A DNA stretch of 64,000 bases from Paraphysomonas bandaiensis (Eukaryota > Protista > Chrysophyceae): NCBI GenBank assembly GCA_965644295.1, contig CBFFRP010000204.1:1-64000 (forward strand), written 5' to 3'. Of the stretch, positions 1 through 63,508 are shown piece after piece. Positions within the stretch are counted from its first letter, which is position 1; the number at the start of each line of letters is the position of its first letter. Under the pieces are notes generated by a model, which was not told the origin of the DNA, searched no databases, and was given only the letters and a program-made list of their open reading frames with translations. A program made the position numbers and the translations under genes.

Positions 1-340
1 GTCTTGTGGAGAGTGCTTCCTCAGTACGGGTGCACACTGCCTGACAGTCTGTGTGGCTTCTTATGTGTTCGGGAATGCGTGTTGAGAGTATAAGCCCCAT
101 GGCTGTGCCTATGAGTTCATATGCGTATGAGTCCAAACCTGGCACATCACGAAAGGGTGTATCTAGTCGTAGTATTATGGTTGTACCATCTTCCCAGGCA
201 TTTTCTGGGGGTAAGTAGACGACCGCTGCACCTCCTCGGTGTGTCCATCGTGTTCGCGGATTGACATGAGTGAGGCGACGCGTGGAGAGCGCACTGGCTG
301 TGTATGATCCATCTGTGAAGATTGCCTTGAAAGTATCTGG
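1..340 (-). other. RNase H domain of the non-LTR polyprotein (partial)
   Basis: Manual translation gives KAIFTDGSY...GGAAVV...SYAYELIG...HTDCQAV, the D-E-D catalytic triad. Absent from the ORF track because the frame runs off the window. Confidence 0.88.
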
Positions 341-3300
341 TTGGACGCTATTAAGGCCGAGTTCTTGTTTTAGATTGGTCAGCATGTGTTCATCCTGTGG
401 TTCGGGGGGCTCAGGTTGCTGAAGGGTAAGGCCCAATTCCGTTCCCCATTCCCTGAGGCTGAGAACATAGTGGTGGTATTGGGGCTGTGGCTCTGTTGTC
501 TGAGTGAGTAGAAAATGTGCTGCTTGACCTGCTTCTCCCCCGAGGGTTATTGCGCGCTGTAGAGATCCCCATTTTTGCTCCTGCGCCGAGTCTGAGAAAC
601 GTTTCATACCTAATCCGTTGTGCTTGAGTGAGAGGTAGATCAGTTCCGTGGGGTATCCAGGGCCTAGACTGAGGGCCTTTCTGTAGAGGGTTGCGCAAGC
701 AGCGTCAATTTCTCTGTACCAGTGTAGCGGCCATGAAGCTTTGGTGGCTCTATAGAGCAAAGTCGGTATGATTTGGGTCTCGATAACCATGACTTTACAG
801 CCGGCTGAGGCCTGTTTAATCCCTAGGTGTGTGGTCACGACTTTCAGGTATTTTAGACACCAATCATGGGAGGCCTTGTCTGTGATTGTGAGAGGAAGGT
901 CTGCTCCGAGGTAATGTATCGACTCTAGTGATGTTTGGATAGGGACTGGGTGTGGACGCCACGACCAGTCGTAGAGAATGATGTAGCCAATGGGGTCGGA
1001 GGACTTGTTGGAATCTTGTAGGATCGGAAACACTGTGCAAACTACTTTGGGGATAGAGAGTTCCATTCCCGAAAGTACGCAGAACGCAGATATTTGTTGG
1101 GCAATGAGTTGGGCAGCGTGTATGGATTTAGCTATTGTGTTAAGATCATCCGCGAAGGAGATCTTTATTTCGCCGGTAGTCGGAGTCGTGAGTTGAATAG
1201 TTGGTAACGTTGGACTCGTTGTTGACAGTTCAATGTCCAGCCACGTGAGAAGGATGTCGTAGAGTGCCACCCAGGCGCATGTGGATTCTGTGCCCCTTGG
1301 GTGATACCCCTTTCGGCTTCGAAACCCAGACTGAATAGTGCAATGAAGTGGCCGTCTGCGGACAGGAGGTCAAGGAGAGAACGTGGCTCTATGTTGTTTG
1401 CCATGAATGGTGTCCAGGGAAATGTTAGACCGCCGGCATCTAAGTTGCCAAACCAGTCAACTACATCGTCCGGAACGCCCAGTCGTGCCCACGCGAGACG
1501 CATGAGGTTAGGCGCAATTGAGTCGAAGGCCTTCTTGAAGTCCCAGAGTGTACATATATGCTGGTCGCCTTTTCGTCTTGCTTCTTCTGCAGCCGCGAGT
1601 ACCCTTAGTATCGCTGTGTCCGTCCCGTTCCTCCAGCGATAACCATGCTGGGACGGATGCAAAACTTTCTGTTCCTCCCATACGGTAAGAATTCTATGAG
1701 TGATTATCCTTGTTAATATTTTCCTACTGACTTCAAGCAGACCAATCGGTCGGAGATTAGTGAGGGAGGATTCTCCTGGTTTCTTGAGAATGGGAGACAT
1801 TACCCTGTCTCTCCACCAAATGGGCACATGTTTATGTTTCCAGAGAGATCTGGTGAGGATGTAAGCCTCTCGCTGAACTACCGGTGGCCAGGATTTGACC
1901 ATGTTGGAGGAGACCATTGAGGGTCCAGGCGCGCGGTTGAAGGAGAGAGAGTGAAGTGTGCAGTAGAATTCATCCTGGGTGATGTCTTTTGCAAGAGTAG
2001 ATTTGAGTGTGGCTGCCATGGCCGGAGTGGTCTTGGTACAAAGGGCCCGTCGTAACCCCAGTTGCAGGGGAAGAGGGATTTTCGAGCGGGGGTGGAGTGG
2101 TTCCTGGCATGTCGCTGAGCCCGGATCAAGAAGGGATTTCCACCATGTAGGGTCATCCTGGAGCTGTTGTGCTACAGGGTCAAGTCCAGGAGGTTTGGCA
2201 TGATGTTCACGGAAGTGCGCATTAATGCCTTCATGAATGTCTTGCGGTGTTGTGAGGATGTGTCCGTCAGTTGTTTTCACCGTGGTAAGTCGGAGTGGTG
2301 TTTTGACCTTGAGACCAATTTTCTGAAGAATTGCTTGAAGTCTTTTCTGCTGTAGCAGTGCCTCCATCTGATTGGTGCGAGCCGTGAGTCTAGTCCGCAT
2401 TTCTGTCCTGGCTCTTCCATGAAGAAGTCCTCTCAGTCGCAAGGCAATTCGGAGAAGGTTTTTCTTGGTGGCTTGCTTTTCGTTCCAACCCAGGATTACT
2501 CGTGGGTCCGCGTTGCGATGGCTGCACCAGAAGTTGATGTCTGATATGCCTTTGATGTGACCCTGAGAACTCCTGAGATAGGAGTCCCATCGGATGAACC
2601 ATGCAGTGATGATTTCGTGGGTGGGGGTGGTTGCCGGGGCCCGCGCCATCCATGCCGTTTGTATCCGGCAGAATTGAACATCTTTTGGATAATCCGCAAA
2701 ACCATGATCATTCCTTCCTGTATTACTCTCATTTCCGGGGAAAAGCCATTCTTGAACTTTGAGCGTTTGCGCTGACAACGTTCGTGTAGTCGTGTGCTAT
2801 AAGTACATGCAGGACGCTTCGCTTCAAGCGAAGCCTGGAGGGTTATGTGATGGATGGCCGCTAGTCTGTTGGCTGCCACCTCAGGAGGGAGTATGGCAGA
2901 CGATCCGTTGTCTAAATGTGGTAGTTGTGCATGAAGTTGGAGGAGTCTTGCGGTGTATGCCTGTACTTCCTTGGAGTCCTTCGGGTTTACATTGAGACGG
3001 GGGGGGATTCGGAGGTGCGACTCAGGTGGTCGAGGGTCAAGATTGACTGGTACAGTGAAACCGACCCAGACCGGTCGATGATCGAAGGCTGCTGCGAGTA
3101 GTGAGGGGGAGTCAAGGCAGCCAGTGTCCGTAACAGACATGTTCGGAAGTAACGGCGTGTGTAGAATATGATCGATCCGCGATATTCCTTTGTCTAATCT
3201 GTGGAAGGTATGATATGTTTTCCTGGGTAGGAGAAGCTCATGGAGTGGTGCAGCCAGTTGGAGTTTGTCGGCAAGTGGTCGTATGTCTCTGCCTTTCGGA

Positions 3301-6300
3301 TTTGTCTCCATGGAGCCATTGAAGTCGCCGGCGACAATGACAGTATGGTCCTTGGCTCTGGCTTTAGTGACCCATTTCGTAAGGATGTTGCATAGGAGCT
3401 TGTAGGGGTCAGCAGTACAGATACCACGGGACGCTCTCCCTAGCTTGGTCAATTTGCTCCATAATGTGCAAGAGCCTGGCGTGGATGGCTTCGGGGGTAG
3501 ATAGACGCTTATTAGTACTAGGGTGTGCGCCACCGACGTTTTGAACTCTAGTCGGCTCACTAAACCAAGTCCCGTAAAGTCAGCCTTTGTGAAGGCGAGA
3601 CGGCGCTTCCAGTATTCGCTGATTATGACTACTGTACCCCCCATTAGTGGGTCTCTTGAAGTCAGTTTTGGCTGCTTGCTGAGGAAGAGGCATATTCTTG
3701 ATCCCTGGATTGCATCTTCTATGATACGTGTGAAGAAGTTGGCCTGAGTTTCTGTTAGACGGACATCCTGTAATAGGATCACGTCCAATTTTTGCCGCTT
3801 AAAGTGTCGGATGATAGCTTGGACTTTGCCTGTGTGAGATGCCGGATTGCCATTTGTGTTCCATGTGGAGAGTCGGAGTCCCATGGCTGCTCCCGAGGGA
3901 GCCTTGGGGATGCTGCTGGAGGTCTCTGTAGGAGTTCCACTCTTGTCTGCAAGGAGTCTGTCCCATACTGCTTTATTGGCACCGCCTATGTCGCTGTCGT
4001 ACGCAGCCCTGGCTTGGATTAATATCTCAAGTGGCCAGCGTTGATCACACCAGTAATGATGCCCGTAGTTGATGAGAAGTTCTTCATCCTTAGCAATGGG
4101 ACGTATTGTACGGACATAGAGGCGTTTATTTTTCGTGACAAACTTGACATTAGCCATGTTTGTGGCTAGGGGGTCATTAATATACCCAGCTTCGCATGTT
4201 ACACATTGTCGGACTTGGTCAAAAAGCCATCTATTGCGAAGGTACCAGTACTGTCTTGAACTATGTAATCAGAACGCCTTGCAGACTGACTCAGCTTTGT
4301 TAGTGGATAGCGTTTGCCTTTGTACTCAGCAATGATGACGTCTGCTGGGAATGTGTTCTTCGCATAAAGGGATAGTCCTTTGGCAGTGTTATCGGCGTAC
4401 GCAATGTAGAACTTTCTTGACCAGTCCTTGTCCCAGCTGGTGGTATCAAGTGCTGGAGTTGGTCTGATCGTTCGTGTGGTCGTGGATTGGTGTGAGTTGT
4501 GAAGGTTCGTTGGTTGGTCACTTTCATCGTAATTTACGACCTTTTTGGCTTTCCGGGTTGGCTGGCATCGACTTGTCAACGCAGTTTGGGCGTGTTTCAA
4601 CTGCATCTTCTTGTGCGATGGTAGTGCTCCAGGGGTTGAAGCCTGCAGAATCTGTCGATTTGTTCGTGCTAGCTTGGTGCTGCTGGACGAGGTTGTTCTG
4701 GTGCTGGTCGTCTTTGATGTCCTATTGTTGTTCGTGATTGAGTCCGCGGGAAGTGTAGGTGGAGCGATGGGGTCAGACGTTGAGAGTATACTGGTGGCCA
4801 AGGTGTTTTCAAGAGATAGTAGGGCGTTGTCTAGGGCAGTAGAAAGACCGGCAGGGTCTAAGAGGAAGTAGTGAGCATCTTGTAGTATGACATGGTAGTA
4901 ATTATCACGAATAGCGTTCCTAAGTTCCTCCACCTTCCATGCGATGTTATAAGCTACTTTGTCAGTAGGGATACCTACAATGCTGAGATAATTACCATTT
5001 TGCGCCCACGTCGTGCAGGGGTTGATAGTAGAGGCTAAAAGGTGGACCTCTCGCACTGAGAGCCAGTGAGTTATGTCGTCCTCCGTAGTGTATGTTGTTT
5101 TGGCAGGTATTAAAAGTGCGGCCTGTGCGTGATCCAACTTATGTCGTAGTGGCTGAAGTGTGTGATGGGCCATGCACTCCCGTTGCATTGTGTCGAACGC
5201 TTGGGTGCCTAATGTATTTATAAAAGATGCTAGCGTGTGACGGTCCTTGCGTTGTTTGAGGTCTAATTTCAGACAGGAGCGAGTGTGTCGCCTGCTTGAA
5301 GCAAGAATGTGCAGATGATAGAGTGTGCTGTATGCGCAGTATCCATCACTTGGGATATGTTGTTGTGTGCGAAGGGCTGAGGGTCTGAGGGTGAGGCGAT
5401 AGACTCTGCTCATGTCGCACATATGGAGCCTGAGTTGTCGACGGTCCGTGGGGTTCATCTGCCGTAGTAGTTGACGTCGAGCTCTCGGTGACAAGGAGAC
5501 TGCAATTACTTCCCTCTGTTCCTGTTGCTCTCTTTGCTCATGTAGCATAGATGGTACAGTTGACGGTTCAGAAGTCCAGATGATGTTGGTGCTCTGTCTG
5601 GAGGTCTGGTGTTGTAGAAAACAGGATAGCCGCTCCTGAGTTCGTGTTAGAGCGTGCATGATGGAGGTGGGGATATTTGTTGCATTTAGTATGTGAAACC
5701 CATGCTGGCTGCGTATGATGTCATGGGTTACCACAGTGTTGGTAGAAGCGTGCACTGTTAGTGCCTGTCTGGAGAATGGTGATAGCTGTGCCCAACCAGG
5801 CGCCAGGTGCGGTTGAACAGCGTCCCATAGTCTGTATGGTATGGAGAGAAGATCGAGTAGCAGTTGGAAATCCTCCGTGTCTAGATGTAGTCCTGTGTGT
5901 GGATTCGAGGATTCATATTGCATAAGTGTCTTACGGAGAGTGACAGTGGCTGTTGAGGGAATACCCTTTGTCAGGCAAAGGGTCCGCACATGCCTAGATA
6001 CAACATGAGTGGAGTCTGCCCAGGGTTTGTTGCCATTCGCGAGATGCTGGGCAACTAGTAGGGCGCTGTGCGTGGTGTCCAATTTGTGCTCTGGTAGCGT
6101 GAATGATATCATGAGATCATAGTTGTCCGTCCTGGAAGCCTTGGCTATGAATCCTTCCCATATGTCTAAACAGGCAGGGGATAGCATGTGTGCGTATATT
6201 TCTTTTAAAAGGTTTCCCTGTGGGGAGGCAGCAATGGTTTGGGTTTCATCATATCTAACCCAGTTGTTCAGCAGATCGGAGTGAAAGGGCGTGTGACCCC

Positions 6301-7681
6301 GGCCCTCTGTGTAGTGTAGGGGGTATGTGGCAATATCCTTGGGCAGTACATCCGGCCTGAGGTCAGGAGTGGTAGTGGAGAGTGAGGATGGGCCGTCTGG
6401 GGCTAATGCTGGAGTTCCCATGGTGTTCAGTTGAGTAAGGTTGGTGGTAGGTGGCTTCCGTTTGACTGGGAAATAGTCAAATAACGTTGCATACGGTGTG
6501 GTGGCATCCTTAGTGGGTAAGGGTAATGTGTGGGTGGATTTGCTGGGTCCGTCACCGCTGTTATCGGAGGAGAATTCCTTCCCCTGAAGGGCGTGGGAGG
6601 GATGGTTGATGGACCTGGCACGGTGGACTCCTTGCATTCCCTTGGAATGACATTGCAACACATTTTGGAGACGCATGATGACGAGGTCAGGAATTCTCTC
6701 GAGTAGCGCGTGTAGTTCCAACTCCACCGGGTATTTGGTGTCCAGGAAGAAGTGATCGTTGGAGCAAAACACATCATAAGATGGAAGGAATTGAGTTTGT
6801 GGAAGGAAGGAGGAATAGTGGGTGGACCAGTACGCCCAGTAAGGGAGAGGCGATAGTTTGTCTGGGGGTTTTCTAGGAGGAGGTAGAGTGTACTGTGTGT
6901 GTGTATGACACTGCAGTGGTGTTATGAGTGTGTTGGACAGTGAGAGAGAGCTGGTGATGTGTCCAACAGTACAGGTAGACAGGTACGTGGACATGGTGAT
7001 GTGTCCAACAGTACAGGTAGACAGGTACATGGACATGGTGATGTGTCCAACAGTACAGGTAGACAGGTACATGGACATGGTGATGTGTCCAACAGCAGTA
7101 GAGGTATACACGGGATGGTATACATCCTGTAGGACACAGTAGTACAGTAGTCGAGTATACCGTATGCGGAATACAGTGTCTATCCAATGAGATGGATGGG
7201 CTGTGGGGGTGATAGGTGAACAGGGTGAGGGGGTAGCCTGCTGGGTGGATGGACCACAGACAAACCATGTTGGGTTGGGTTGAGTGGGCGGCAGAAGGCA
7301 GCCCTGTTGCACAGTTGAGAGGGATCGAGAGTATTCAGTGATTGCATAGGGGGTCCATGGGGGTCGTTTTCGTGAGCCTGCTCGCACGAGCCATGTTCTG
7401 AGAGGTTGTAGCCGTAGAAAGCGATGGGTGAGACGAAGTTGTCTGCTGAGGGGATAGCACGTAGGTGCGGTCAGCGCTGCATTGGTGCAGGCACGTGGTT
7501 TAACTGAAGTAGTTGAGTAGGGTGAAGGTTGCAAGGCCAGGCAGGGGGGCTTGGAGCGTGTACAACATGGTGTGACAGGTAATTTGTCGGAAGCGTGGTG
7601 GTCAACAAAATGCAGCAGTAAGGGAGTGTAAAAGGCCCTGGGCACACTGATGTGACTCAGCCACAGTCTCAATAGAGACAT
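1..7681 (-). CDS. Retrotransposon polyprotein OTU-SET-APE-RT-RNaseH (>2,550 aa after repairing 3 frameshifts; partial at 3' end)
   Basis: ORFs 4199-7681, 2496-4157 and 1165-2778, plus an open frame from ~1293 to base 1 (translated by hand, no stops), join by three -1 shifts at A5 4221-4225, G-runs ~2623-2640 and C4 1293-1296. Confidence 0.85.
860..1800 (-). other. Reverse transcriptase domain (non-LTR type)
   Basis: LRPIGLLEVSRKIL, QHGYR, WDFKKAFDSI, RGITQG, ISFADDL (1142-1162), HYLG; downstream LIYLSLKHNGLGM motif at ~610-640. Confidence 0.95.
3060..3880 (-). other. Apurinic/apyrimidinic-like (EEP) endonuclease domain
   Basis: LSTWNTNG, DVILLQD, ISVYLPP, VIVAGDFNG, SRIDHIL, FDHRPV motifs. 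Confidence 0.93.
4050..4415 (-). other. SET domain (lysine methyltransferase), split by a -1 frameshift
   Basis: KGLSLYAKNTFPADVIIAEYKG...YIV...AIDG / CEAGYINDP...NVKF...LYVRTIRPIAKDEELLINYGHHYW. Confidence 0.88.
4860..5365 (-). other. OTU-like cysteine protease/deubiquitinase domain
   Basis: HIPSDGYCAY (Asp/Cys loop), WLSVREVHLLA (W-x4-E-x3-LA) and ILQDAHYF (His) in OTU order and spacing. Confidence 0.72.
6952..7096. repeat. 42-bp tandem repeat, ~3.4 copies, in frame in the retroelement ORF
   Basis: Unit TGGTGATGTGTCCAACAGTACAGGTAGACAGGTAC(A/G)TGGACA; encodes VGHITMSMYLSTCT on the minus strand. Confidence 0.95.
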
Positions 7682-7892
7682 TGGGCTTGGAGCTGGTTAA
7701 TAGAGTGAAACTTTATGTTGGACTGTATTTGCCATCGTAGGGCAGAGAATTCTCTGTCCTTTTCTAACTAAATCAAATCATATATTAGTAGCAAGCTCAT
7801 CTTCTCATTATCATTATACTATGCCCTAGATTTCAGTACATAGTACATATATCCAGGAAATTATTGATGTTATATTTCAACAATATAATTAT

Positions 7893-8110
7893 CAGGGCTG
7901 CGTAACCATTTATTGTCAACTAATTGGCGCAGGTTGTCAATTAAAATTGCAATTATTACTTGTTGTCCCAATTTCAATTAATTGCAATTAAACTATTAAA
8001 CTACATACGTATATAGCTATATATTAGCTGCCAACTGCCAGTATAGCTCACTCAATTGTCGATTCATCCCAGAGGCGACATTTCACGCGTAAAAGTATGA
8101 GTAACTCTAA
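7893..8110. mobile_element. hAT terminal relic (same family as 53764-54869)
   Basis: Starts CAGGGCTGCGTA and aligns by eye with 53764-53945, including CCAGAGGCGAC...CGTAAAA. Confidence 0.7.
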
Positions 8111-10894: not shown

Positions 10895-12490
10895 TTATTT
10901 AACAACGCGCAATAAGGAGGCTATGTCGTCCCGCTCTCAAAATGTTTCAACGAGAGCTAAATGCCCGAATACTCCTTATCACTAGGTTAAATTGTAGCTT
11001 AATCTCATGATGTTGAAAACATATTATTAGATTATCCCCTCTTTGTCTCAAAAAGCTTTTTTTGACCTGATTTGGGCTCAGCAGAGCGCTCATATCACCA
11101 CCGGGCAAATATAGACATTCAACTTCAATATACGGTTCAACAGAAGCTCACTTCTATCTTCATTATGATAATGACAGTCGAATGTGAGAAATCGAAATAG
11201 GATTTCCCAACGGATGACGACAACAGCTATTCAAGGTAAGTCGATAGCTTGGCATTAAAGAACAGTAAAAAAGAGCCGTTTCAGATTCACCGGGCAAATA
11301 TAGACATTCAACTTCAATATACGGTTCAACAGAAGCTCACTTCTATCTTAATTATGATATCGGCAGTTATATGTATGCGATTTCATTATATTTTACACTA
11401 TTGTAGAGAAATCACAGTGATGAGCCAACTATCCAAAGCTGATCATCAAACACTCCAAGTTGTATTCCATCCTTTGACTGCTGTAGAAGATCATAATGAT
11501 GTCAGTACAAGCGATCTATCTTCATCACAACAAGTAAAAAAAAGGTGTTTCCTGATTAGAGCATTAAGAAAACAAAAATGAGAATTCATATTGTTTCAAG
11601 TGAATATAGTATGTATGCTGGCTGTGTATGCTTTGGGAATATAGCAATTGCACTATAGATAAACTCAAACAATAAACCCTCAAATTTTATATAGAATAGC
11701 TATAACAAATGCACTCCTACCACAGAAGGATACTGAGTGAATATAGCAAGTGCGAGAAATTGAAATTCTTACATAAGTGTGTGTGATGATGAATGTGACA
11801 GTTGTAGTCGCACGGAAGGCTTTTTATTGCTTTAATTAGTATCATCATCATAATATTTATATGCACCTGCCTTAACCTCTACTAATGCACCTGATTGAAT
11901 GATGTGAGTATGACATGAGGCACACAATATCCTGATAAGCACAATGCAACCCGAACCCTCAAAGAACTGGGTGCCACTGACCTTTACGACCTATACAGCA
12001 TCAGATATGGCACTTAAACTCTCCTGAAACATTCTGAAGTTGTTTCGAAGTCAACTGGATGTCACTGCCCTTTACGACCTATACAGCATCCGATATGGCA
12101 CTTAAACTCTCCTGAAACATTCTTGAAGTAGTTTCGAAGTCCTGGTTATGAAGATAGATCGCTTGTACTGACATCATTATGATCTTCTACAGCAGTCAAA
12201 GGATGGAATACAACTTGGAGTGTTTGATGATCAGCTTTGGATAGTTGGCTCATCACTGTGATTTCTCTACAATAGTGTAAAATATAATGAAATCGCATAC
12301 ATATAACTGCCGATATCATAATTAAGATAGAAGTGAGCTTCTGTTGAACCGTATATTGAAGTTGAATGTCTATATTTGCCCGGTGTATCTGAAACGGCTC
12401 TTTTTTACTGTTCTTTAATGCCAAGCTATCGACTTACCTTGAATAGCTGTTGTCGTCATCCGTTGGGAAATCCTATTTCGATTTCTCACA
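10895..12490. repeat. Rearranged, partly inverted copies of an ~850-bp non-coding dispersed element
   Basis: ~11183-11525 and ~12146-12490 are near-perfect inverted copies; 11100-11170 duplicates 11290-11360; 10895-11033 is the reverse complement of the element end at 63340-63500. Confidence 0.88.
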
Positions 12491-12994
12491 TAGTCTATTG
12501 GAATTTCAGAGCTTATTTTGCTTTCTAATATAAATCTTTGTTTTTGTAGTTACGCGAATTAGTAATTCTTAAGATTAGCATCTCCAGGGCACTCATCAAC
12601 CCAACCAATGGTTAGAAACCTGAATCCTAACCCTAACTAACCGAACACGAACACCGAACTCAAACCTTAACAAATAATTCCATCAATACATTGTGTATGC
12701 AGTACTTTTAAAAACTGCTGAGTTCTTTCAAACATTTCTAAGTAACAATAGTCAATACCATCATACATAAGATACTTCTTCAAAATGACAACTATACAAT
12801 CCCATAAAACTCTAGGGTCTATAAACAAAATCTAAGACACACCATCAGAAATAATCATCCAATTTAGGATCTATTTCACATATCGCATTCAGAACTCTAA
12901 ATTAGATTTGTAGCATGTACAATAGATATGCACTAATCAGGAGACAGTTAAAACCATTGTTGGCCACTCCATCTAGTCATGCGTTTCATCCCAT

Positions 12995-23277: not shown

Positions 23278-23793
23278 TACTCCCTAAACTCATATAAAAC
23301 TTATTGCATCTTTACTCTCTCTATATATTCCTCTTTAAGCCACACGCTTGCCATAATAGCCACCCACTATGCCTGCTTAGCAGCATCACCATGCATAGCG
23401 TCTATAGCATGCTCTTGAATGGTCCTAACTCCTGCTCATCTCCATATCCAGAGCACCATTAAGTCGGAGGAAGGCGATGACCAGGTCAAATGGTCAAAAC
23501 CAGGCCAAATAAGCTATTACCTAAAAAATTGTATTTTATGTGTCTAGATTCTTTCTAACATGTTTGTAGCTTGTTTCTACTGCTCAAAACATTATATTTG
23601 TTCATTATTTACAAAATAAAATTAGCGATACAAGCATTATAATTACCAAAATATATAACTATTAACTATAATATATATTATACATATAACAATATTCAAC
23701 AGTTAAATCATAATATATATATAGTTAATAAAGCGTTTGAGAATTACTCAAACATACGAGCAGTACAACTAATCCAGGATACAAACAACATGA

Positions 23794-25375
23794 TTACATA
23801 GGCTGATACTGTGGGGGATACTGGAGGGGATAGTTAGGTGGTTGCATGGGAGGCGTTACCACGTGTTGCTGTGGCTGCATACTCAAGATGAAAGCCTCAT
23901 ACGTTTGAACCTGCAGCTCAGCTTCATTCCAGCGTGAAGTACGTTTACCTTGATTAAGAAGAGCTTGCGCTTGCATGTATTGCAAAGGAGAGGAAAGGGT
24001 AGAAGAGCAGGGCCCAAGTGTCATTTGTTGTGCCGTTGGCTGCATGTGAGGGGTGTATGTGGGTGTCACAGGTGGATACCCGCCAGTGAATTGTTGAGAA
24101 GGAGTCCCAACAACTTGAGGAGTTGGTACAGGAGTGCTAGGCGTACTTGATGATGCGCTACGCTGCAGCAGCTGGTCCTCAAGCAACTCATACTTTCTCT
24201 TTTGCTCCTCAAGCATCCGAACAAGATCTTTTTTCAAGGGAATTTTTGACTTCTTGCTTGTTGGTAAGTCATTATCAGTCCCACCGTCTTCTACCACACT
24301 TTCGTTCTTAACCTTCTTTTGGTCGTTCTTAACAGCACCCTGCTTTGATGCTCTCGTAGCAGCTGCACGCTTCGCTTTTGCCTTGCCCCTACACTTCTTA
24401 TCATTGTGGACTGCTATTAGTGTGGACACCAGTGGTTCATGCTTAGTGTTTCTTTTCGGATTACGCCTCTTGCGGACCTTTTCGTTAGTCGCTGCAAGTT
24501 GCCCTTCGACAATTGGGTCAAAGCCATCAACAATTAGGTGGCCCTGCTCATCCTTGTTTGGTCCATTCTTCGAATCCCAGAATAAAGGTGTCAAGAACTT
24601 CACTAGATGAACTCCCATTTGGTCAGAATCAACTTCTTCATCAAGCAAATAGTCCAATTCGAGTACATGCTTACTGATTCCAGTCCACAAAATAACAACT
24701 TCGCTGTCGACGTCCCAAAGCACGACGTCGTAGCGAGGCCTGGCGCTCTTTGTCCGAAGGTAGCATAAGATAACGTACTCCTTTCCAGTTTTATAGTTCC
24801 GAGTGCGGACCATAGACAGGTGAATAATCTTGGTGCTCGTATTGAAATGAGCACCAAGGACATAATAGTTGAAGAGCGGCGGGATAGACGCCATGACTTC
24901 GGGGTTTACGAAGAGTCGAAGTGTAGCTCCATCCATCTGAAACTTCTTCCGAGCGTAGCAGTGACTCCTCCCTGAGTACTCAATCGAAAAGGAAGCTTCA
25001 GTGGTCATAAAATCGTCAAGGAATTGATGGCCCCTGGTATTGCTCCTACCTTTCTTTGCGTCTGTTTTCTTGTTTGTTTGCAATGCATATGATGAATCAC
25101 AAGCTGTGAATAAAAATAAGATCATTTGTTTGATTTCACTCACTGCACGACTCACCATCTTCTGCTGTTTCTGTTTTATCATCATCAAATTCATCAAGGA
25201 ATGCTGCAGCTGCATCCATAGCACACTGGGAGCACATCGAGGAGCTTACCCCTCTATCTGATGACCTAAACGTTTTGTTGCAAGAAGTGCAACAGACAGG
25301 ACCCGCCGGCATTTCCTGAGAGCCACCACTGGAGTACATATCTAGAGTGTTGGAATATGAATCCAAGTCATCCAT
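23794..25375 (-). CDS. TIR-element gene A: N-terminal CxxC...CxxC, unknown globular core, basic region, coiled coil, Q/P-rich tail
   Basis: A 52-nt GT-AG intron at 25104-25155 joins ORF 25136-25375 (CTSC...CSQC) to ORF 23794-25224. Confidence 0.7.
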
Positions 25376-25502
25376 TACTTTAACATGTATGCTGTATATA
25401 TGTGTCTATATATGTGTATATGTTTATATGTTTGTAGTGTATGTGTGTGATATCACTGAGAGGAGTGGATTTGATGACAAAACAGCAACTCAACTCAAAA
25501 AA

Positions 25503-26869
25503 ATGATGGAAGAAATTCCGAATTCCGAATACGATCCTCTTTTTTTAGTTCAACACTTCGACTTCACTTCACTTCGACCTCATTCATCATCATCACATGC
25601 ATACATGTATACATACATATATATTCCACTCATCCATAATATATACATACATACATAGACTGAGACCCAAAGGTTGAACGTTTTGCAAAAGAGGAATGGA
25701 CTCAACTGCAGTTCATTTTTGAAAGAGTCGAGCCCTCGGAGAGGTATGAGCATGGCGTGAAAGCTACTTGTCGGCCGTATGCAAAAGATGAAGTGGTTGA
25801 GATTGTGGATGACCCTGACCAGGATTCGATCACCGGGCTGATCCCTCAGCTTACCAAGGTCAACATTCAACCTGCAGATGAAGACCCTCCCTTCAATTTT
25901 TTATTGCGGTTACCACGAGAGGCTAAAGTATTTAAGCCGGAGCCTTTTGTTGCGATGAGTAGACAACATGCATTAGTTTGCTCAAATAAGATGATTCAAT
26001 CCTACACTGGTAAGAATCCTGCTGTGGTGGAGAGTTGGACGCGGTGGAGAGACAGTGTGTTGCCACAGTCTGATGATGCAGATGAATACGTAGCCGAGCA
26101 TCCCATGTACATTCCCTTTAAAGACCAACTCTTCTCTGGTAATCCAGCTCCAGAGAGGAGTTCATTGGAAAGAGCAGATCATGCTACAGCCCTTGATGGC
26201 GTGACTCTTCCGCCAATGAGAGTTGTCGAGAGTACAACAAGCAGTCTGTGTCACTCTGGGAAGCCCAAACCTTCTTCCAAAAAACACGAGACACCTGCTC
26301 GTCTTGTAGTCCGTGAGAGGGATGGTTCTGTGCCATCTCAACCAAAGGAGGCCCGGGCAGGAATTATTGTTACCCAGAAGACTCCAAGAAAAACGCAGAC
26401 GAAGAAGGGGTATTCATCTGGCAAGAAGAAGGAGTCAGCGACAAAGAAGAAGGGCTCTTCTTTCAACTCTGACATGATTACTAGTGACGATATTGATGGT
26501 TTTGTTGCGGAAGTCGAAGACGAGGAAGAAGAGTCAGAATATGAGGAAGAAGAAGAGGAGGGAGTTCGAAACTTTGAACTTGGTGCTGTGATTCAGAACA
26601 TGCATCGCCTGCGCGGGACTATCACAGCTTGTCATGACGATGGATCCTATGATGTGAAGTACAAAGACGGTAGAACTGATGAGAATGTGTCTTGGAAGTT
26701 GCTGTTCCCTCCTCCGGCTCCTCGAAAGAGTACTTCTAGCAAGAAAGGTTCGTATGAAATGATGGTTGTTCCGGATGACTACAAGTGGGTGGATACTGGG
26801 GCTGTTTCTTCCGCCATTCACTCTGTATCCGGCAAGCGCAAGCGATCGAATGTAAATTATAAAATGTGA
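25503..26869 (+). CDS. TIR-element gene B: low-complexity protein with a C-terminal Tudor/Agenet-like domain and NLS-like tail (start uncertain)
   Basis: FELGAVI...RGTITACHDDGSYDVKYKDGRTDENVSWKLL at ~26572-26706; acidic tract; GKRKR. The frame extends 5' of 25757. Confidence 0.68.
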
Positions 26870-27154
26870 ATTGGCTTGGGACTTTTGTATGATTATATGA
26901 TATTATTTAACGTGTTTTATATATATGAATTTTTACGTATATTATTATAGTTAATAGTTATATATTATGGTAATTATAATGCTTGTATCGCTAATTTTAT
27001 TTTGTAAATAATGAACAAATATAATGTTTTGAGCAGTAGAAACAAGCTACAAACATGTTAGAAAGAATCTAGACACATAAAATACAATTTTTTAGGTAAT
27101 AGCTTATTTGGCCTGGTTTTGACCATTTGACCTGGTCATCGCCTTCCTCCGACT

Positions 27155-29170
27155 TTAGCACAACCATCACATAGGCCACCCGGTAAAGAAGTAGCATTCA
27201 TCTCCGACTTCGTTAACTTAATACCCGTTACTAATTTTGACTGTACAGCTTTCTGTATGAGTCCAATTGAAGAATGTGCCAATCTCTTATGTGCTAGGGT
27301 TGCGAGTGGGCCTGAAGCAGTTGAAGCAAGGTGGGATTCGTCAATAGGAGTACCGAGGTCTGTTAACGGAATTTCATATAGGCCTCCAACTCTCTTACCC
27401 TTTGATAGCAGTATTTCATCTTTATATATCTCAACTGATTGGTTTCCGAACAAGATTTTATACCCTAGGTCATCTAATTGGCTGATGGACACGAGTGTCC
27501 TTGAAGCATGGTCCACGTGCTTGCACTTGGGGATAATACCAAGTCTTCCATGTCCTGAAGAGGTCATAGTTGATCCTGACTTAGCTGTTTGAATGTCGGT
27601 GAGGCATTCCTCATAATTGGTGATGTATCCGGCTTCAGGTGTGATGGAGACTGTGCAGCCAGAATCAAGGGTCCCCATTCCGGCTTCTTGATCAAAAACG
27701 AAGTTCGTTTCGTCGTTTGTTGGATATCCGACTCCTCCGAAGTCTCGTCCTTTCTGTTGTAGTGGACCACTGTCTTCATAATCTGCAAACTGGTCGGATT
27801 CGTCGTTTTCAGTGCTCTGGTGGGTCTGGAATCTAACTTTTTTGAATTTCCTACTGGTTGATTTGTTTCCAGAGGAATTCTTCATCTGTTGGATTCTTTC
27901 CCATGAGTGTTTGCATTCTGAAGCGATGTGTCCTTTTCCATCGCATCGGAAACACTTAATGTCCTTGTCAGCTCTCTTGTCATGTTTCGGTTTATTGGAA
28001 CGGTTTCTGAAAGATGTCCCCTTTTTGCGCTTGGAATTCACTTTATTTCGGGAAAATGGGGGTTTTGAGGCTGCAAGCTGAATACTGTCGGTTTTTGTTT
28101 CTTCGTTGCTTGACAAGAGCATTCCAACAGACGAGCTTCCTAATCCGCGTAGTCTGCGTATGAGTGTTTTGTAGTCATCGATAGGGTGCATCTGCAGGTT
28201 GATCGCCAGTTCACGATACGTCATATTTTCTTTGGATACCAGGCCTTGTCGAATGCGTGATATGAGATCTTGGTCACTTATCCGATGACCATAATTAATC
28301 AGCTTGTTTCGGAGCTTTTCGACAGCGTCAAGAAAGTTGATTATCGACTGACCTTTTTTGATTTTTATGCTCTGAAACTGGCCAATCAGATCGGTGATTA
28401 CATCGTTAGTCGTTTTTTCTTTGAAGTGGTTGAGCAAGTCCGTCCAGGCGGTTTTACCGTCTCCATCGGGGACGTTCTCCAAAATCCCCTCAGCCTCTTC
28501 ATTCTGACCAATGATAGAGCTTGCAATGACTGACCATAGGTAGTTATTACCTTCATCATAATATCGTTTCGCATCCTGATACTGTTCGAGTCGATACTGG
28601 TAGTCCTCGTCATCTGAGTTTTCTCCTGCTTCAGGCTCAATTGGGTGATCGTTCTGTAGAGTATAAACGATCTTAGGCTTGCTGATAGAACCATGCACGG
28701 CACTTCTTCTGCCACCTGGAGAAGTTCTTCGCATCGAATTTTGGCATTGAGTCCTTTCGCTTGTCGGTTGTCGAATCCGAGTCGGTTGAGTCGTAACTTG
28801 TAACTTTAACTGACATCTCGCTACCAAATAAAGAATTGATCTTTATAATAGTAAAACAATGTTGTGATTATTAGAGTGTAAGTAATGAACACGATAGAGT
28901 GAAAATTATGAATAACAATATAGAACGTACTATCATGCACAACGGAATAGTTAGAAGTGTAACTGATAATGACGACGTTATGATGACGATCACGTATCTT
29001 CGACAGATACTCTCTCTAATTCAGTTCATGGTATATTTCATTGAACATTATAACTCACAGATACAATCATGTGTTAAGCTGAATCCTAATACTATGTGTT
29101 GCCACAGTTATTCAATGGATGTACATTATTCGTATTGAGTATGTATGGATAGTTATCCACATTCCAAACA
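27155..29170 (-). mobile_element. 5' half of a Ty1/Copia element (LTR ~28827-29170, PBS, gag, protease, GAG-pre-integrase), truncated at the TIR element
   Basis: PBS TGGTAGCGAG 28817-28826 directly followed by ATG; DGKTAW, zinc knuckle CFRCDGKGHIASEC, LDSGC, LVSISQL, HKRLAH...CDGCAK. Confidence 0.93.
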
Positions 29171-41914: not shown

Positions 41915-42030
41915 AGTATAATATATTATGGTATTATATCTAATTTAAAAGCTAGTAGGTACTAATGGTCATTATAATTGCCATTATAACTGGACTACCA
42001 TTAATGGGCCATTAATGGTTATCAGGCCCT
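41915..42030. mobile_element. Partial hAT MITE (family of 58203-58416)
   Basis: CTGGACTACCATTAATGGGCCATTAATGGTTATCAGGCCCTG end. Confidence 0.75.
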
Positions 42031-42722
42031 GCGGTAGATGGTAGATACGGAGAGACCGTTCAAAACCTCCTGAAGTGATATACCTGGTTTTAAAGAGGAA
42101 CCTCTAAGAAGGATTGAAATAATCATATATATGTTTATCGATTTTCCAGTTTGTGTTTTCGTGGTTGTGCATCTGGTAGTTTTGCCTCGTTATTATACGG
42201 AATCAGATGAGAGCAAATAGAAGCTGTAATATAGTAGTTATGTATTTATAAACAGTATGCATGATAGTGATTAAGTGTTATGAATATGTACTAGGTAAAC
42301 TGCAATATAGTGACTGCATAAGACCTTCACAATGTAGAATTGTAACTGAAGCCATTATGATATGAAGCAAGTTGCAATTAAAGATGAGAAATCGTTATAA
42401 CAATGTTAATTGAGTGTTGTTCTTACTGTGTTCAGTTAACTTCTTTATGTACTGCAAACCAAGCTTAATGTTAAGGTTGTGAGATATTACGACAGTAATA
42501 TATATGTCCATGAATATTGTTATACATATTAGAGCTTCAGTTTCGTAAATGATAACATGAGTACATGCATTCTCAACACCCAGGCCGCATAGAAAAGTTT
42601 AACGCCGAGTAGTTTAGATTCGTTTACATTAGACCAGTAATTACACTCGATTATTCATAACCCCACATCGCGCTTCTCCATATTACTAGCATTGTGTCTA
42701 TATATCCACCCATGTGTCTACA

Positions 42723-56469: not shown

Positions 56470-58015
56470 GATTATTGGAGTGTAAGTAATGAACAGGATA
56501 GAGTGAGAATTATGAATAACAATATTGAAAGTCTTATTATTTAGCAATAGGCATTAAAAACTTGTTTCAATATAGAACGTAACTATCATGCACAACGGAA
56601 AAGTTAGAAGTGTAACTGATAATGACGACGTTATGATGACGATCTACATTTTTTCTGGTACAATGACTTATCAAACAAACTCTAAGAGAAGCTCACCTAA
56701 TACACTATTCTTTGACTGCTGACAGTGCAAGCGATCTATATCCAAAACCAGGACTTCGTAACAACTTCGAGAATGTTTCAAAAAGTGCCATGTAGGTGCT
56801 GTATAGAGAGTTCTTTCAGGGTTTGAGTTACACACATTGTGTCCAATATCACACTCACACCAATCAATGCCACAGATGTCTGTAATCGAGATTGCCATGA
56901 AATAGGACAATTAACTATGAAGAATGTAAATGCTGAAGTGGACAGTCTAGTTGGGTGATATTGTGCCCAATCGCTATCGTAGTATCCTGACAATGTATGT
57001 GGGATACAGAATATATCAATCCTTGCTTAGCAGTGCCTTTGAGATACCTAAGAACATGTAACGCAGCATTAGAGGTAGTTAGATTGGCATATCAGAACAC
57101 CTGGCAAGAGTATTGACTGCGTCAGCAATATCCGGTCGAGTGCATACAGCTAGATACATCAGTCAGGGAACCTATGAGCTCCTTGTAGGAAAATAACTTT
57201 GATTTGATGCTGAAAGATGATTGTATTCATGTAAATCATAGTTGAAGGAAAGTAACATAGAGGTGTTGACATATTGAATTTGTCCAACAGTTTGTTGACA
57301 TACTGGTCCTGACTTAGCAGTTTGAATGTCGGTGAGGCATTCCTCATAATTGGTGATGTATTCCGGCTTCTTGATCAAAAACGAAGTTCGTTTCGTCGTT
57401 TGTTGGATATCCGACTCCTCCGAAGTCTCGTCCTTTCTGTTGTAGTGAACTAATTTTCCTACTGGTTGATAGTCCTCGTCATCTGAGTTTTCTCCTGCTA
57501 CAGGCTCAATTAATTGGGTGATCGTTCTGTAGAGTATAAACGAATCTTAGACTTGCAATAGAACCATTCACGGCACTTCTTCTGCCACCTGGAGAAGTTC
57601 TTTGCATCGAATTTCGGCATTGAGTCTTTTCTCTTGTCGGTTGACGAATCCGAGTCGGTTGAGTCGTATTTTGTAACTTTCACTGACATCTCGCTACCAA
57701 ATAAAGAATTGATCTCTTTATAATAGTAAAACAATGTTGTGATTATTGGAGTGTAAGTAATGAACACGATAGAGTGAGAATTATGAATAACAATATAGAA
57801 TATTGAAAGTCTTATTATTTAGCAATAGGCATTAAAATCAATATAGAACATAACTATCATGCACAACGGAATAGTTAGAAGTGTAACTGATAATGACGAC
57901 GTTATGATGACGATCATGTATCTTCGACAGATACTCTCTAATTCAGTTCATGACATATTTCATTGAACATTATAACTCACAGATACAGTCTTGTATTAAG
58001 CTGAATCCTAATAAA
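56470..58015 (-). mobile_element. Highly deleted Copia copy (LTR 57700-58012, PBS, gag scraps, RT/RNase H scraps, partial LTR 56472-56645)
   Basis: Near-identical to parts of 27580-29090; YDSDWA...STS...PISWQSRLQTSVA, TRPDIA. Confidence 0.88.
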
Positions 58016-58029
58016 ATGTGATTATGATA

Positions 58030-58665
58030 AAATAAGAAGCCTTTCGTGCGACTACAACTGTTTACATTCACCATCACACTTACGTACGAATTTCAACACC
58101 TCACAGTTGCTATTCACTCAGTATCCTTCTGTGGTAAGAGTGTATTTGTTGCAGCTATTCTATATATAAATTTGGTGGTTCATTGTTTGAGTTGATCGAT
58201 AGCAGGGCCTGGTAACTATTAATGGTAATGGGCCATTTAAGTACAAATAAGTAATTTAGGGAGCACAACACTATCTATTATATGAGTGGTGCTATCTACA
58301 TTAAGTTAGTAGGTATTAATGGCCATTATAATTGCCGGGACACTTTTCATTAATGCCATTATAATTGCCGGGAACTGGACTACCATTAATGGGCCATTAA
58401 TGGTTACCAGGCCCTGATCTATAGTGCATTGCAATTTTCCCAAAGCATACACAACCAGTAGACATATAATATCATTCATTTTTCTTAATGCTAATCAGGA
58501 AACACGCATTTCTTATTACAGCAAGCAAGCTACTAGTAGCTATACAATCTAATATTAAGTTTTCAACATCATGAGGATAAGCTACAATTTCTTTCGCCCT
58601 CGTTTCAAAAGTTTGTGCCCGGGACGATATAGCCTCCTTATTGCCCGTGGTTAAATATAACTATT
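58030..58665 (+). repeat. Partial copy of the ~850-bp element, interrupted by a hAT MITE
   Basis: Ends GGGACGATATAGCCTCCTTATTGCCCGTGGTTAAATATAACTAT as at 63465-63508. Confidence 0.82.
58203..58416. mobile_element. hAT MITE (214 bp)
   Basis: Perfect 14-bp TIR CAGGGCCTGGTAAC; 8-bp TSD ATCGATAG/ATCTATAG; empty site in the paralogous copy at ~11650-11670. Confidence 0.92.
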
Positions 58666-62662: not shown

Positions 62663-63508
62663 CCCCATTTTGTCTCAAAAAAAGCTTTTTTTTGACTTGA
62701 TTTTGTCTCAACAGGGCGCTCATATCAGCACCGGGCAAATATAGACATTCAACTTCAATATTCGGTTCAACAGAAGCTCACTTCTATCCTAAGTATGATA
62801 ATGACAGTCGTATGTATGTGATTTCATTGTAGTACACAATTATAGAGAAGCCACAATCATGAGCGAAACACCAAGAGCAGATCATCTAACTCCAAGTTAT
62901 ATTCCATCCTTCGACTGCTGTATAAGATCACAACGATGTCAGTGCAAGTGATCTGTCTTCATATCCAGGACTTCGAAACAACTTCAAGAACATGACAGGA
63001 GAGTTTAAGTACCATATCTGATGCTATATAGGTGGTTAGGAGCAGTGGCACCCGTTCTTTCAGGGTTTGAGCCATATCGTGCTTCTCAGGATGTAGTGTG
63101 TCTCATATCATACACACATCATTCGATCAGGAGCACTTGCAGAGGTAAAGCCTGCAGTATATAAATGTGATAAGGCAATAAGAAGCCTCTCTTCACCTTC
63201 AACTGTTCACGTTTATCATCACACTTCAGTATACATATCATTGATTTGAAACTATATGAGTTCTCATTTGTGTTGTTCTTAATGTTAATCAGGGAACATC
63301 TATTTCTTAATACAGCAAGCATGCTACAAATAGCTATACAATCTAATATTAACTTTTCAACGTCATGAGGATAAGCTACAATTTAACCTAGGGATAAGGA
63401 GTATCGTCCCTTGTCTAAATTTTAAAACTCGGGCTTTACGCCCTCGTTTCAGAATTTTGAGCGCGGGACGATATAGCCTCCTTATTGCCCGTGGTTAAAT
63501 ATAACTAT
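62663..63508 (+). repeat. Most complete copy of the ~850-bp non-coding dispersed element
   Basis: Contains in linear order the segments found scrambled at 10895-12490 and partially at 58030-58665. Confidence 0.85.

Follow-up and report, generated by a model that had tools for sequence, protein, structure and literature searches.

What is a SET domain doing inside a retrotransposon, is it intact, and where did it come from? The question is raised by a stretch of 64,000 nucleotides from the chrysophyte Paraphysomonas bandaiensis (positions 1 to 64,000 of contig CBFFRP010000204.1, assembly GCA_965644295.1), referred to below as the window. Positions 1..7751 hold, on the minus strand, a copy of a LINE-type non-LTR (long interspersed nuclear element, non-long-terminal-repeat) retrotransposon. 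The element occurs in many near-identical copies, and its single open reading frame (ORF) encodes an OTU-like protease, a SET domain, an APE endonuclease, a reverse transcriptase (RT) and RNase H. In the window copy this frame is interrupted, and the SET domain is split by one of the interruptions.

The element and its broken frame

The minus strand of 1-7751 contains four overlapping open frames (4199-7696, 2496-4268, 1165-2796 and 2-1369). A Pfam scan finds SET and APE in the frame 2496-4268 and RT in the frame 1165-2796. The copy is delimited by its domain order and by contigs of two sequencing runs, X7 and X15, that end or diverge at 7751, with a drop in depth beyond; its 5' end lies near 7751 and its 3' part extends past the window start. 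The 5' part of the long ORF includes a 42-bp tandem repeat (6936..7095, repeat family D7). Downstream of SET come APE (3066..3878; PF03372, 41.6 bits), RT (896..1935; PF00078, 39 bits) and the start of an RNase H-like domain truncated by the window edge (2..319), all on the minus strand. This last piece scores 70 bits with a profile of its relatives and carries an FTDGS motif; the Pfam scan gave no RNase H match for it.

APE lies upstream of a LINE-type RT, as is characteristic of APE-type non-LTR retrotransposons. As in L1 ORF2p, APE precedes RT in one frame, and L1 ORF2p is among the solved structures matched by the relative P0003, at an E of about 1e-6. A C-terminal Cys/His knuckle in relatives (seen by eye), the many copies and a 5'-truncation junction are likewise shared with APE-type elements. 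Unlike L1 ORF2p, however, the SET element has one ORF of 2,500-3,900 amino acids (aa), with OTU-like repeats and SET ahead of APE, plus RNase H.

The initial annotation of this locus had noticed that the N-terminal half of the SET domain (KGLSLYAK...IAEYKG...AIDG) closes ORF 4199-7681 of the first frame and that the rest follows in the -1 frame. Both frames are indeed present: 2496-4268 carries on, at an offset of -1, with DQVRQCVTCEAGYINDP...ELLINYGHHYW. The further statement that the domain is hidden by a frameshift holds for this assembled copy but not for the others. Seven of the 24 listed runs were compared at the breaks, five of DNA (X1, X3, X4, X7 and X9) and two of RNA (X15 and X16). 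The break falls in an A5 run (4221..4225, plus strand) that has two bases more than in the other copies according to the run contigs. Contigs without these two bases make up 94.1 of a depth of 100.4 in X3 and the full depth in X4 (2158.4/2158.4), X7 (16.3/16.3) and X9 (24.2/24.2). The residual depth of 6.3 in X3 is a single 59-nt contig that ends within the A run. In X1, where contigs are short and indel-rich, this deletion at 4221 is found in 4261/11092. With the two bases removed, the SET halves share one frame, and the junction has the length of that in P0001 as judged by eye.

As the window has overlapping frames with a -1 offset and a T5 run where they meet, the arrangement could also be read as a programmed -1 ribosomal frameshift, such that only a fraction of ribosomes would make SET-APE-RT. 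This reading is largely refuted and, in our view, extremely improbable. The two bases are absent from other copies, the relatives are continuous, and the canonical slippery heptamer XXXYYYZ was not found in the overlap. Moreover, the same copy is similarly broken inside RT and in the APE-RT linker. Because contigs of four DNA runs lack the two bases at 4221, which restores one frame, the break is not programmed. It is a private defect of this copy and not a control switch.

The second break sits near 2640 in the APE-RT linker, within a G/C run (2630..2645, plus strand) where other copies differ by one substitution and one gap. The third is at 1292 inside RT, where other copies have one extra C at full depth in X3, X7 and X15. 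At 5464, three extra bases of the window are likewise missing from X3, X7 and X15. If an X is placed at each of the three breaks, the frame amounts to 2564 codons up to the window edge, without a stop. Each of the four sites (4221, 2640, 1292 and 5464) falls within or next to a homopolymer or a short tandem run. This pattern fits a long-read consensus error, the most likely source of the defect. Two points limit this account. A genuine mutation in this single copy is possible, because contigs drop rare variants; and the RNA runs X15 and X16, which cover SET sparsely and have zero depth at the break, are uninformative either way. Host genes were considered as a control for assembly errors, but those examined appear to carry short GT-AG introns, and their overlapping frames looked like such introns, so that they offer no control. 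A relative from another metagenome (L001:2479-2687) has a frame break of its own, early in APE. The frameshift as such is of no interest.

The contigs also bear on copy number. In X4, depth is 2039-2343 across most of 3850-4750, as compared with 31.4 for one contig that exits the element at 4643, and one 776-nt contig carries zero substitutions. This suggests about 70 near-identical copies and one 5'-truncated insertion, a figure that is rough, as depth is not a count of copies. Depth stands above the flanks and rises toward the 3' side which, together with the junction contig at 4643, fits dispersed 5'-truncated copies (again a rough, contig-based picture). The element is present in marine metagenomes and in runs labelled as two single organisms which, with the apparent introns of the host genes, makes a marine protist the probable host.

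Several junctions deserve separate mention. Beyond 4643, the low-depth X4 contig continues into sequence in which a likeness to a dispersed repeat, D19 (41988-42031 and 58373-58416), can be made out by eye; this is a 5'-truncated copy and may hint at a preferred target. At 3850-3881, contigs of X3, X4 and X9 match the start of APE only and then diverge into one shared sequence (X4 depth 412.6); the organism probably has another LINE family related to this one. At 6840-6841, contigs of several runs exit or enter the element, the foreign sequence extending over 255 nt in X7, and an RNA contig spans the site; in some copies there may be an insert here, or the 5' part may differ. In X15, a poly-A library, contig depth is 57-198 over the 5' part (6300-7750) as against 0-5 over SET and APE. 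Contig depth cannot rank expression, but the excess could stem from short transcripts of the 5' part or from derivative elements. Beside the 5' end, at 7936-7990, lies a small dispersed repeat, short, AT-rich and partly palindromic, where many contigs from other loci join.

The SET domain and its companions

With the two extra bases discounted, the SET domain (4050-4414, minus strand) has 121 codons, as against 119 aa for the chlorovirus enzyme vSET, and was thus rightly described as compact. Alignment places in its N-half (4226..4414, minus strand) motif I, KGLSLYA, with the second Gly replaced by Ser, followed by EYKG, SDY and IDG. The C-half (4050..4220, minus strand) contains a conserved Cys, YIND (Asn at 4178-4176), NVKF, ELLINY (Tyr at 4067-4065) and YW. 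It alone exceeds the Pfam cut-off for SET (PF00856, 29 bits versus 22.4); the SET of P0001 reaches 37.8 bits. Foldseek matches are SET/PR domains (E about 1e-5), and PR-domain profiles match weakly as well. A helical flank common to the retroelement clade follows on the C-terminal side (3960..4049, minus strand), as seen in the alignment and in helices 139-148 and 154-167 of the P0001 model. The window SET has no pre-SET or post-SET Cys cluster, in accord with the initial annotation, though one family-conserved Cys is present. It keeps what we take to be the catalytic Tyr (of ELxxxY, also noted at the outset), the cofactor Asn, the EYxG Tyr of the lysine channel and the aromatic lid YW.

A SET profile built from five SETs retrieved 3968 proteins at E up to 0.001, of which the best 150 were used. 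The quick tree has 154 rows, P0098 and P0134 having been left out as too short; a 74-row set was analysed with FastTree, and smaller trees have 40 and 48 rows. The window SET falls in a 62-row group of the 154-row tree (SH-aLRT, the SH-like approximate likelihood ratio test, 91, under the starred level). Subsets of this clade are supported at 98/91 (13 of 40 rows) and 92/92 (13 of 48 rows). Of the proteins in the 61 other rows, 10 also contain APE (in one case a weak match), a further 3 contain Ulp1 and another 3 an OTU-like repeat; the rest are mostly fragments. Five members (P0048, P0041, P0043, P0072 and P0033) end in GIG or GVG and two (P0003 and P0004) in RDG, possibly a shared C-terminal signature. 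Multi-enzyme fusions are also found: two SETs with PRMT5 and DOT1 in P0131 (2700 aa), two SETs with PRMT5 in P0141, SETs with DOT1 in P0037 and SETs with a kinase in P0060.

Within the clade, 61/62 rows retain the catalytic Tyr and 61/62 the cofactor Asn, while the W of YW is conserved in 59/61 and the Y of EYxG in 52/58. What is presumably the product-switch position is occupied by Phe in 42/62 rows, that of the window element included. Between P0003 and P0004 the SET is identical at 100/136 positions (74%), while the upstream linkers are at 40-48%, APE at 86% and RT at 88%. Window and P0158 share 47% identity in SET versus 30% in the linkers. In X9, a wild run, none of 8 differences lies within SET, and 6 of the 7 that are absent from X3 and X4 alter linker residues; by simple arithmetic the chance that none of these 7 would fall in SET is about 0.03. 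In these comparisons SET conservation tracks that of the enzyme domains and is far above that of the linkers. Such wide retention of the catalytic Tyr and of the cofactor Asn makes it likely that SET is catalytically active. This agrees with the earlier judgement of probable competence, for which the conserved residues and the contrast with the linkers speak; the Gly-to-Ser change calls for caution.

Some features weigh against activity. The canonical GxG of motif I is not retained in the window, where Ser stands at a position that is Gly in 47/52 clade rows. In P0001, the closest relative, this Gly is replaced by Ala and the Tyr of EYxG by Cys. The SET structure model is also poor (pLDDT 60.7, and below 50 at residues 85-97 and 126-138) and is weak at the active site. 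One may thus imagine that in this subfamily SET has lost its catalysis, or much of it, and is kept for targeting, as a binding module that reads SAM (S-adenosylmethionine) or histone tails. The substitutions at motif I in both proteins, the Tyr-to-Cys change in P0001, the weak PR-domain matches and the Asp in place of the His of NHS (first noted as INDP for INHS, and seen in the window as YIND) would all be compatible with such a module. Yet Asp at this position is the family norm (56/62 rows) and occurs in Bacteroidota, algal and virophage SETs as well, and the window retains the catalytic Tyr, the Asn, the EYxG Tyr and YW. We therefore hold this alternative to be distinctly unlikely and retain the reading of SET as a probable enzyme.

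Upstream of SET, relatives carry a Cys/His-motif domain in up to three copies. In the window the repeat with both motifs lies at 4802..5404 on the minus strand (Cys at 5338-5336, His at 4873-4871), as defined by model, structure search and motif alignment. A degenerate first repeat (5783..6289, minus strand) has 28% identity to residues 208-405 of P0001; a motif scan found a single Cys motif in the ORF and none in this repeat of the window copy. The model of 4802..5404 has a pLDDT of 76.6. All top 10 rows of its Foldseek search are OTU proteases (best E 0.018), and all top 13 rows of the VIA search are OTU domains (best Z 7.3, rmsd 3.5, 142 aligned). The domain is accordingly predicted to be an OTU cysteine protease, on middling structural scores. 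Against the assignment, all Z-scores are below 8, and hhalign comparison of the OTU-like repeats with Pfam-supported OTUs was non-significant (probability <1%).

Intact relatives support the domain order. Searches for longer homologues yielded 2 proteins among 7988 candidates and 4 among 5485; of 172 matches in a metagenome scan, 1 locus was confirmed. P0001-P0004 are intact SET-APE(-RT) proteins and P0005 has the same layout, in a single ORF: OTU-like domain, SET, APE and then, where complete, RT, RNase H-like domain and the Cys/His knuckle (the knuckle by eye). A point on the other side is that the SET of P0005 was found by the family profile only, being too diverged for Pfam. In a second layout, P0016 (3923 aa) and P0032 (3532 aa) have an N-terminal RNase H, then APE and RT, followed by SET, a Pfam OTU and Ulp1. 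As these two carry SET behind RT, members of one SET clade are retained at two different places in the polyprotein. Cluster look-ups for 30 proteins yielded an organism name for 2 clusters and an MMETSP source (Marine Microbial Eukaryote Transcriptome Sequencing Project) for 1. One of the names concerns P0156, a fragment from the cluster of P0001, which has been deposited as a protein of a Nitrospiraceae metagenome-assembled genome; the label is probably a binning error that involves eukaryotic DNA.

Origin of the SET domain

The initial annotation likened this SET to chlorovirus vSET and to bacterial nucleomodulins, and considered acquisition from a giant virus or a bacterium. The likeness to vSET of chlorovirus PBCV-1 (PMC7019647; PDB 1n3j) extends to a length of about 120 aa, the absence of Cys-rich flanks and the YG..YW end. 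However, vSET is free-standing, a reported dimer, and keeps NHS (PMC7019647), whereas the window SET is embedded in a polyprotein. The vSET-like rows are without the IDA..C..YIND signature, and the window SET does not have the EEC/NHS signature of vSET. Against solved structures, the family profile scores 37.8 bits with yeast Set1 and 32.7 with SETD7, ahead of vSET (23.1, over profile positions 90-135 only) and the bacterial nucleomodulin LegAS4 (22); the proposed resemblance is thus not borne out. Neither is the YG..YW end peculiar to viruses and bacteria, as it is also found in a eukaryotic transcript, P0124, of the MMETSP collection.

A viral connection nevertheless emerged, in another form. 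Two groups without a taxon label score 89-116 bits on the clade profile, and scans with them led to two viral contigs. L085 is a contig of a Sputnik-type virophage with major and minor capsid genes and a compact SET gene (SET at 13-483) that scores 117.6 bits on this profile. L088, a Polinton-like contig with two A32 ATPases and a primase-helicase, has a SET of 98.9 bits. These are the best-scoring labelled relatives, as compared with about 38-61 bits for SETs of giant-virus-like contigs. The two phage SETs that served as proxies for vSET, L002 (whose best solved match is vSET) and L004, score 38.5 and 27.3 bits. Other scans were less productive. Those of viral contigs with the element ORF or a SET-APE alignment gave 7 and 67 pattern matches, with 0 confirmed, and those with P0104 and P0199 found no match; the alignment of SET by itself contains no stretch of sufficient conservation for such a scan. 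A Foldseek viral search returned SET proteins at 11-24% identity, with none standing out. ESM Atlas look-alikes, which are leads only, include giant-virus and Bacteroidota SET clusters at 0.93 and an OTU-bearing cluster at 0.90.

The virophage and Polinton-like SETs share SDY, IDA and Cys-xx-(R/G)YxND with those of the retroelements; they differ in being free-standing genes of 157-188 aa in AT-rich DNA viruses, and the sisterhood has weak support. On such sequence comparisons, the SET of the element belongs to a broad compact 'YxND' family found across viruses, bacteria and protists. A SET phylogeny, proposed as a check in the initial annotation, joins the retroelement clade to the virophage group in the best trees, with weak support of 53/79 (40 rows) and 79/76 (48 rows). 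Our best guess is that the SET most likely shares an ancestor with SETs of virophages and Polinton-like viruses, whichever the direction of transfer. Retrotransposons inserted in endogenous virophages have been described in Cafeteria (PMC8547959), and such insertions would provide a possible route for transfer between virophage and retroelement.

Several observations pull the other way. Support for the virophage sisterhood is at 79/76, and the profile-profile score is 142.5 as against 132.5 for Bacteroidota. On the clade profile, eight Bacteroidota loci reach 83-93 bits and an algal/Pontiellaceae group of 7 rows, with an MMETSP transcript and a Pontiellaceae protein, 77-100. In approximately unbiased (AU) tests with 40 rows, none of three groups is rejected (p 0.34 for vSET-like, 0.30 for Bacteroidota, 0.49 for algal), and most close relatives are without a taxon label. 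As far as origin alone is concerned, the SET may thus have come from a host (algal-type) or bacterial compact SET, or the viruses may have taken it from the retroelement. We regard this as a serious contender whose chances fall somewhat short of even. Both best trees speak against it. So does the 48-row AU test, in which Bacteroidota sisterhood is narrowly rejected (p 0.040); the vSET-like placement is not rejected there (p 0.19). Moreover, a Cys just before xxYxND is common to 11/13 core, 6/6 near and 9/9 virophage-group rows, and is present in 0/5 algal-group and 1/5 Bacteroidota-plus-phage rows. Of the original notion of viral or bacterial acquisition, what survives is a viral link of the virophage/Polinton-like kind.

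Possible roles and known counterparts

What might the enzyme do for the element? Intact copies read as one long frame, from the OTU-like protease through SET, APE and RT to RNase H. By the established mechanism of LINEs, the polyprotein would bind its own RNA, APE would nick the target and RT would copy in place. With SAM as cofactor, SET would then methylate lysines of histones (probably to more than the monomethyl state, in view of the Phe at the product switch), the OTU-like domain would strip ubiquitin, and the new copy would land in chromatin that favours its survival or expression. In other words, the polyprotein may act as a chromatin kit in cis, bringing both activities to the insertion site. 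We hold this proposal to be evenly balanced between right and wrong.

SET could instead be active on non-histone targets, such as the protein of the element itself or a host silencing factor, and the protease may free SET to act in trans. One of the best matches among solved structures is SETD7, an enzyme that also acts on non-histone substrates, as its TAF10 complexes show. The absence of a pre-SET or post-SET region and the shifting position of SET within the polyprotein, repeatedly near proteases, also fit this alternative. Relatives of this SET occur in Bacteroidota, which do not have eukaryotic nucleosomes. On the other hand, the co-occurrence with OTU and Ulp1 and the fusion of P0131 to PRMT5 and DOT1 domains point to chromatin, and for action in trans no cleavage site was identified in the polyprotein. 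Non-histone activity therefore seems to us a minority option, and the cis-acting chromatin kit is the reading that we retain. A broader scenario goes further: a widespread group of giant protist LINEs would have captured the compact methyltransferase from virophages or Polinton-like viruses, which reside in protist genomes and can themselves harbour retrotransposons. Combined with OTU and Ulp1 proteases in shuffled order, it would form a kit for editing chromatin, one that adds methyl marks to histones and removes ubiquitin or SUMO wherever a new copy inserts. This is speculative, and we think it rather unlikely in full.

Known elements provide partial counterparts. SymbioLINE-Dnmt (de Mendoza et al. 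2018, PMC5890265) is likewise a LINE that encodes an epigenetic writer, and purifying selection acts on it; the writer in that case is a cytosine DNA methyltransferase with a separate upstream ORF, whereas the window element has a protein-lysine SET fused into the RT polyprotein. Helentrons and proto-Helentrons are a transposon class with SET and OTU-like domains in members, but they are rolling-circle DNA transposons in which SET, at about 153 aa, has an ORF to itself and has been compared with Clr4 (PMC4067079). Utopia/NeSL elements encode a Ulp1-like protease (PMC4640811) and Dualen a Josephin-like protease (PMC8557442). Like the SET element, they are non-LTR elements whose RT polyprotein includes a protease of the ubiquitin-related kind; they differ in their restriction-like endonuclease, alone or with APE; the parts of these sources covered describe no SET. 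In MELD viruses SET is listed in a figure legend (PMC8502044). A Dam methyltransferase is reported in LTR and DIRS elements, with SET unmentioned in the portion of that preprint covered (bioRxiv 10.64898/2026.05.21.726589). No SET-domain passage was found in the main-text parts of Paez-Espino 2019, Roux 2017, Bellas 2021 and Ustyantsev 2017 that were covered. Full-text literature searches turned up no description of a SET-bearing LINE; Repbase reports and subscription journals lie outside that search, so that a prior description may exist.

Elsewhere in the window, an inverted repeat at 11182-12491 has 347-nt arms, 99% complementary and 616 nt apart, with related copies near 62700-63050. A perfect 213-nt inverted repeat (23461-23673 / 26943-27155) adjoins a copia-type gag-protease frame (27136-28842), and pieces related to the 23461-28842 region lie near 57300-58020.

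Retrotransposons that carry DNA methyltransferases are already known. A LINE whose insertion protein includes a histone-type writer and predicted erasers of ubiquitin and SUMO would extend the idea to protein marks. The 121-aa SET is also a small candidate enzyme. Because the element family is young, intact and many-copy, and is found in single-organism runs and in seawater metagenomes, both the substrate of SET and its effect on silencing are directly testable. The virophage link, if true, would show that genes have passed between two different types of genomic parasite that live side by side in protists.

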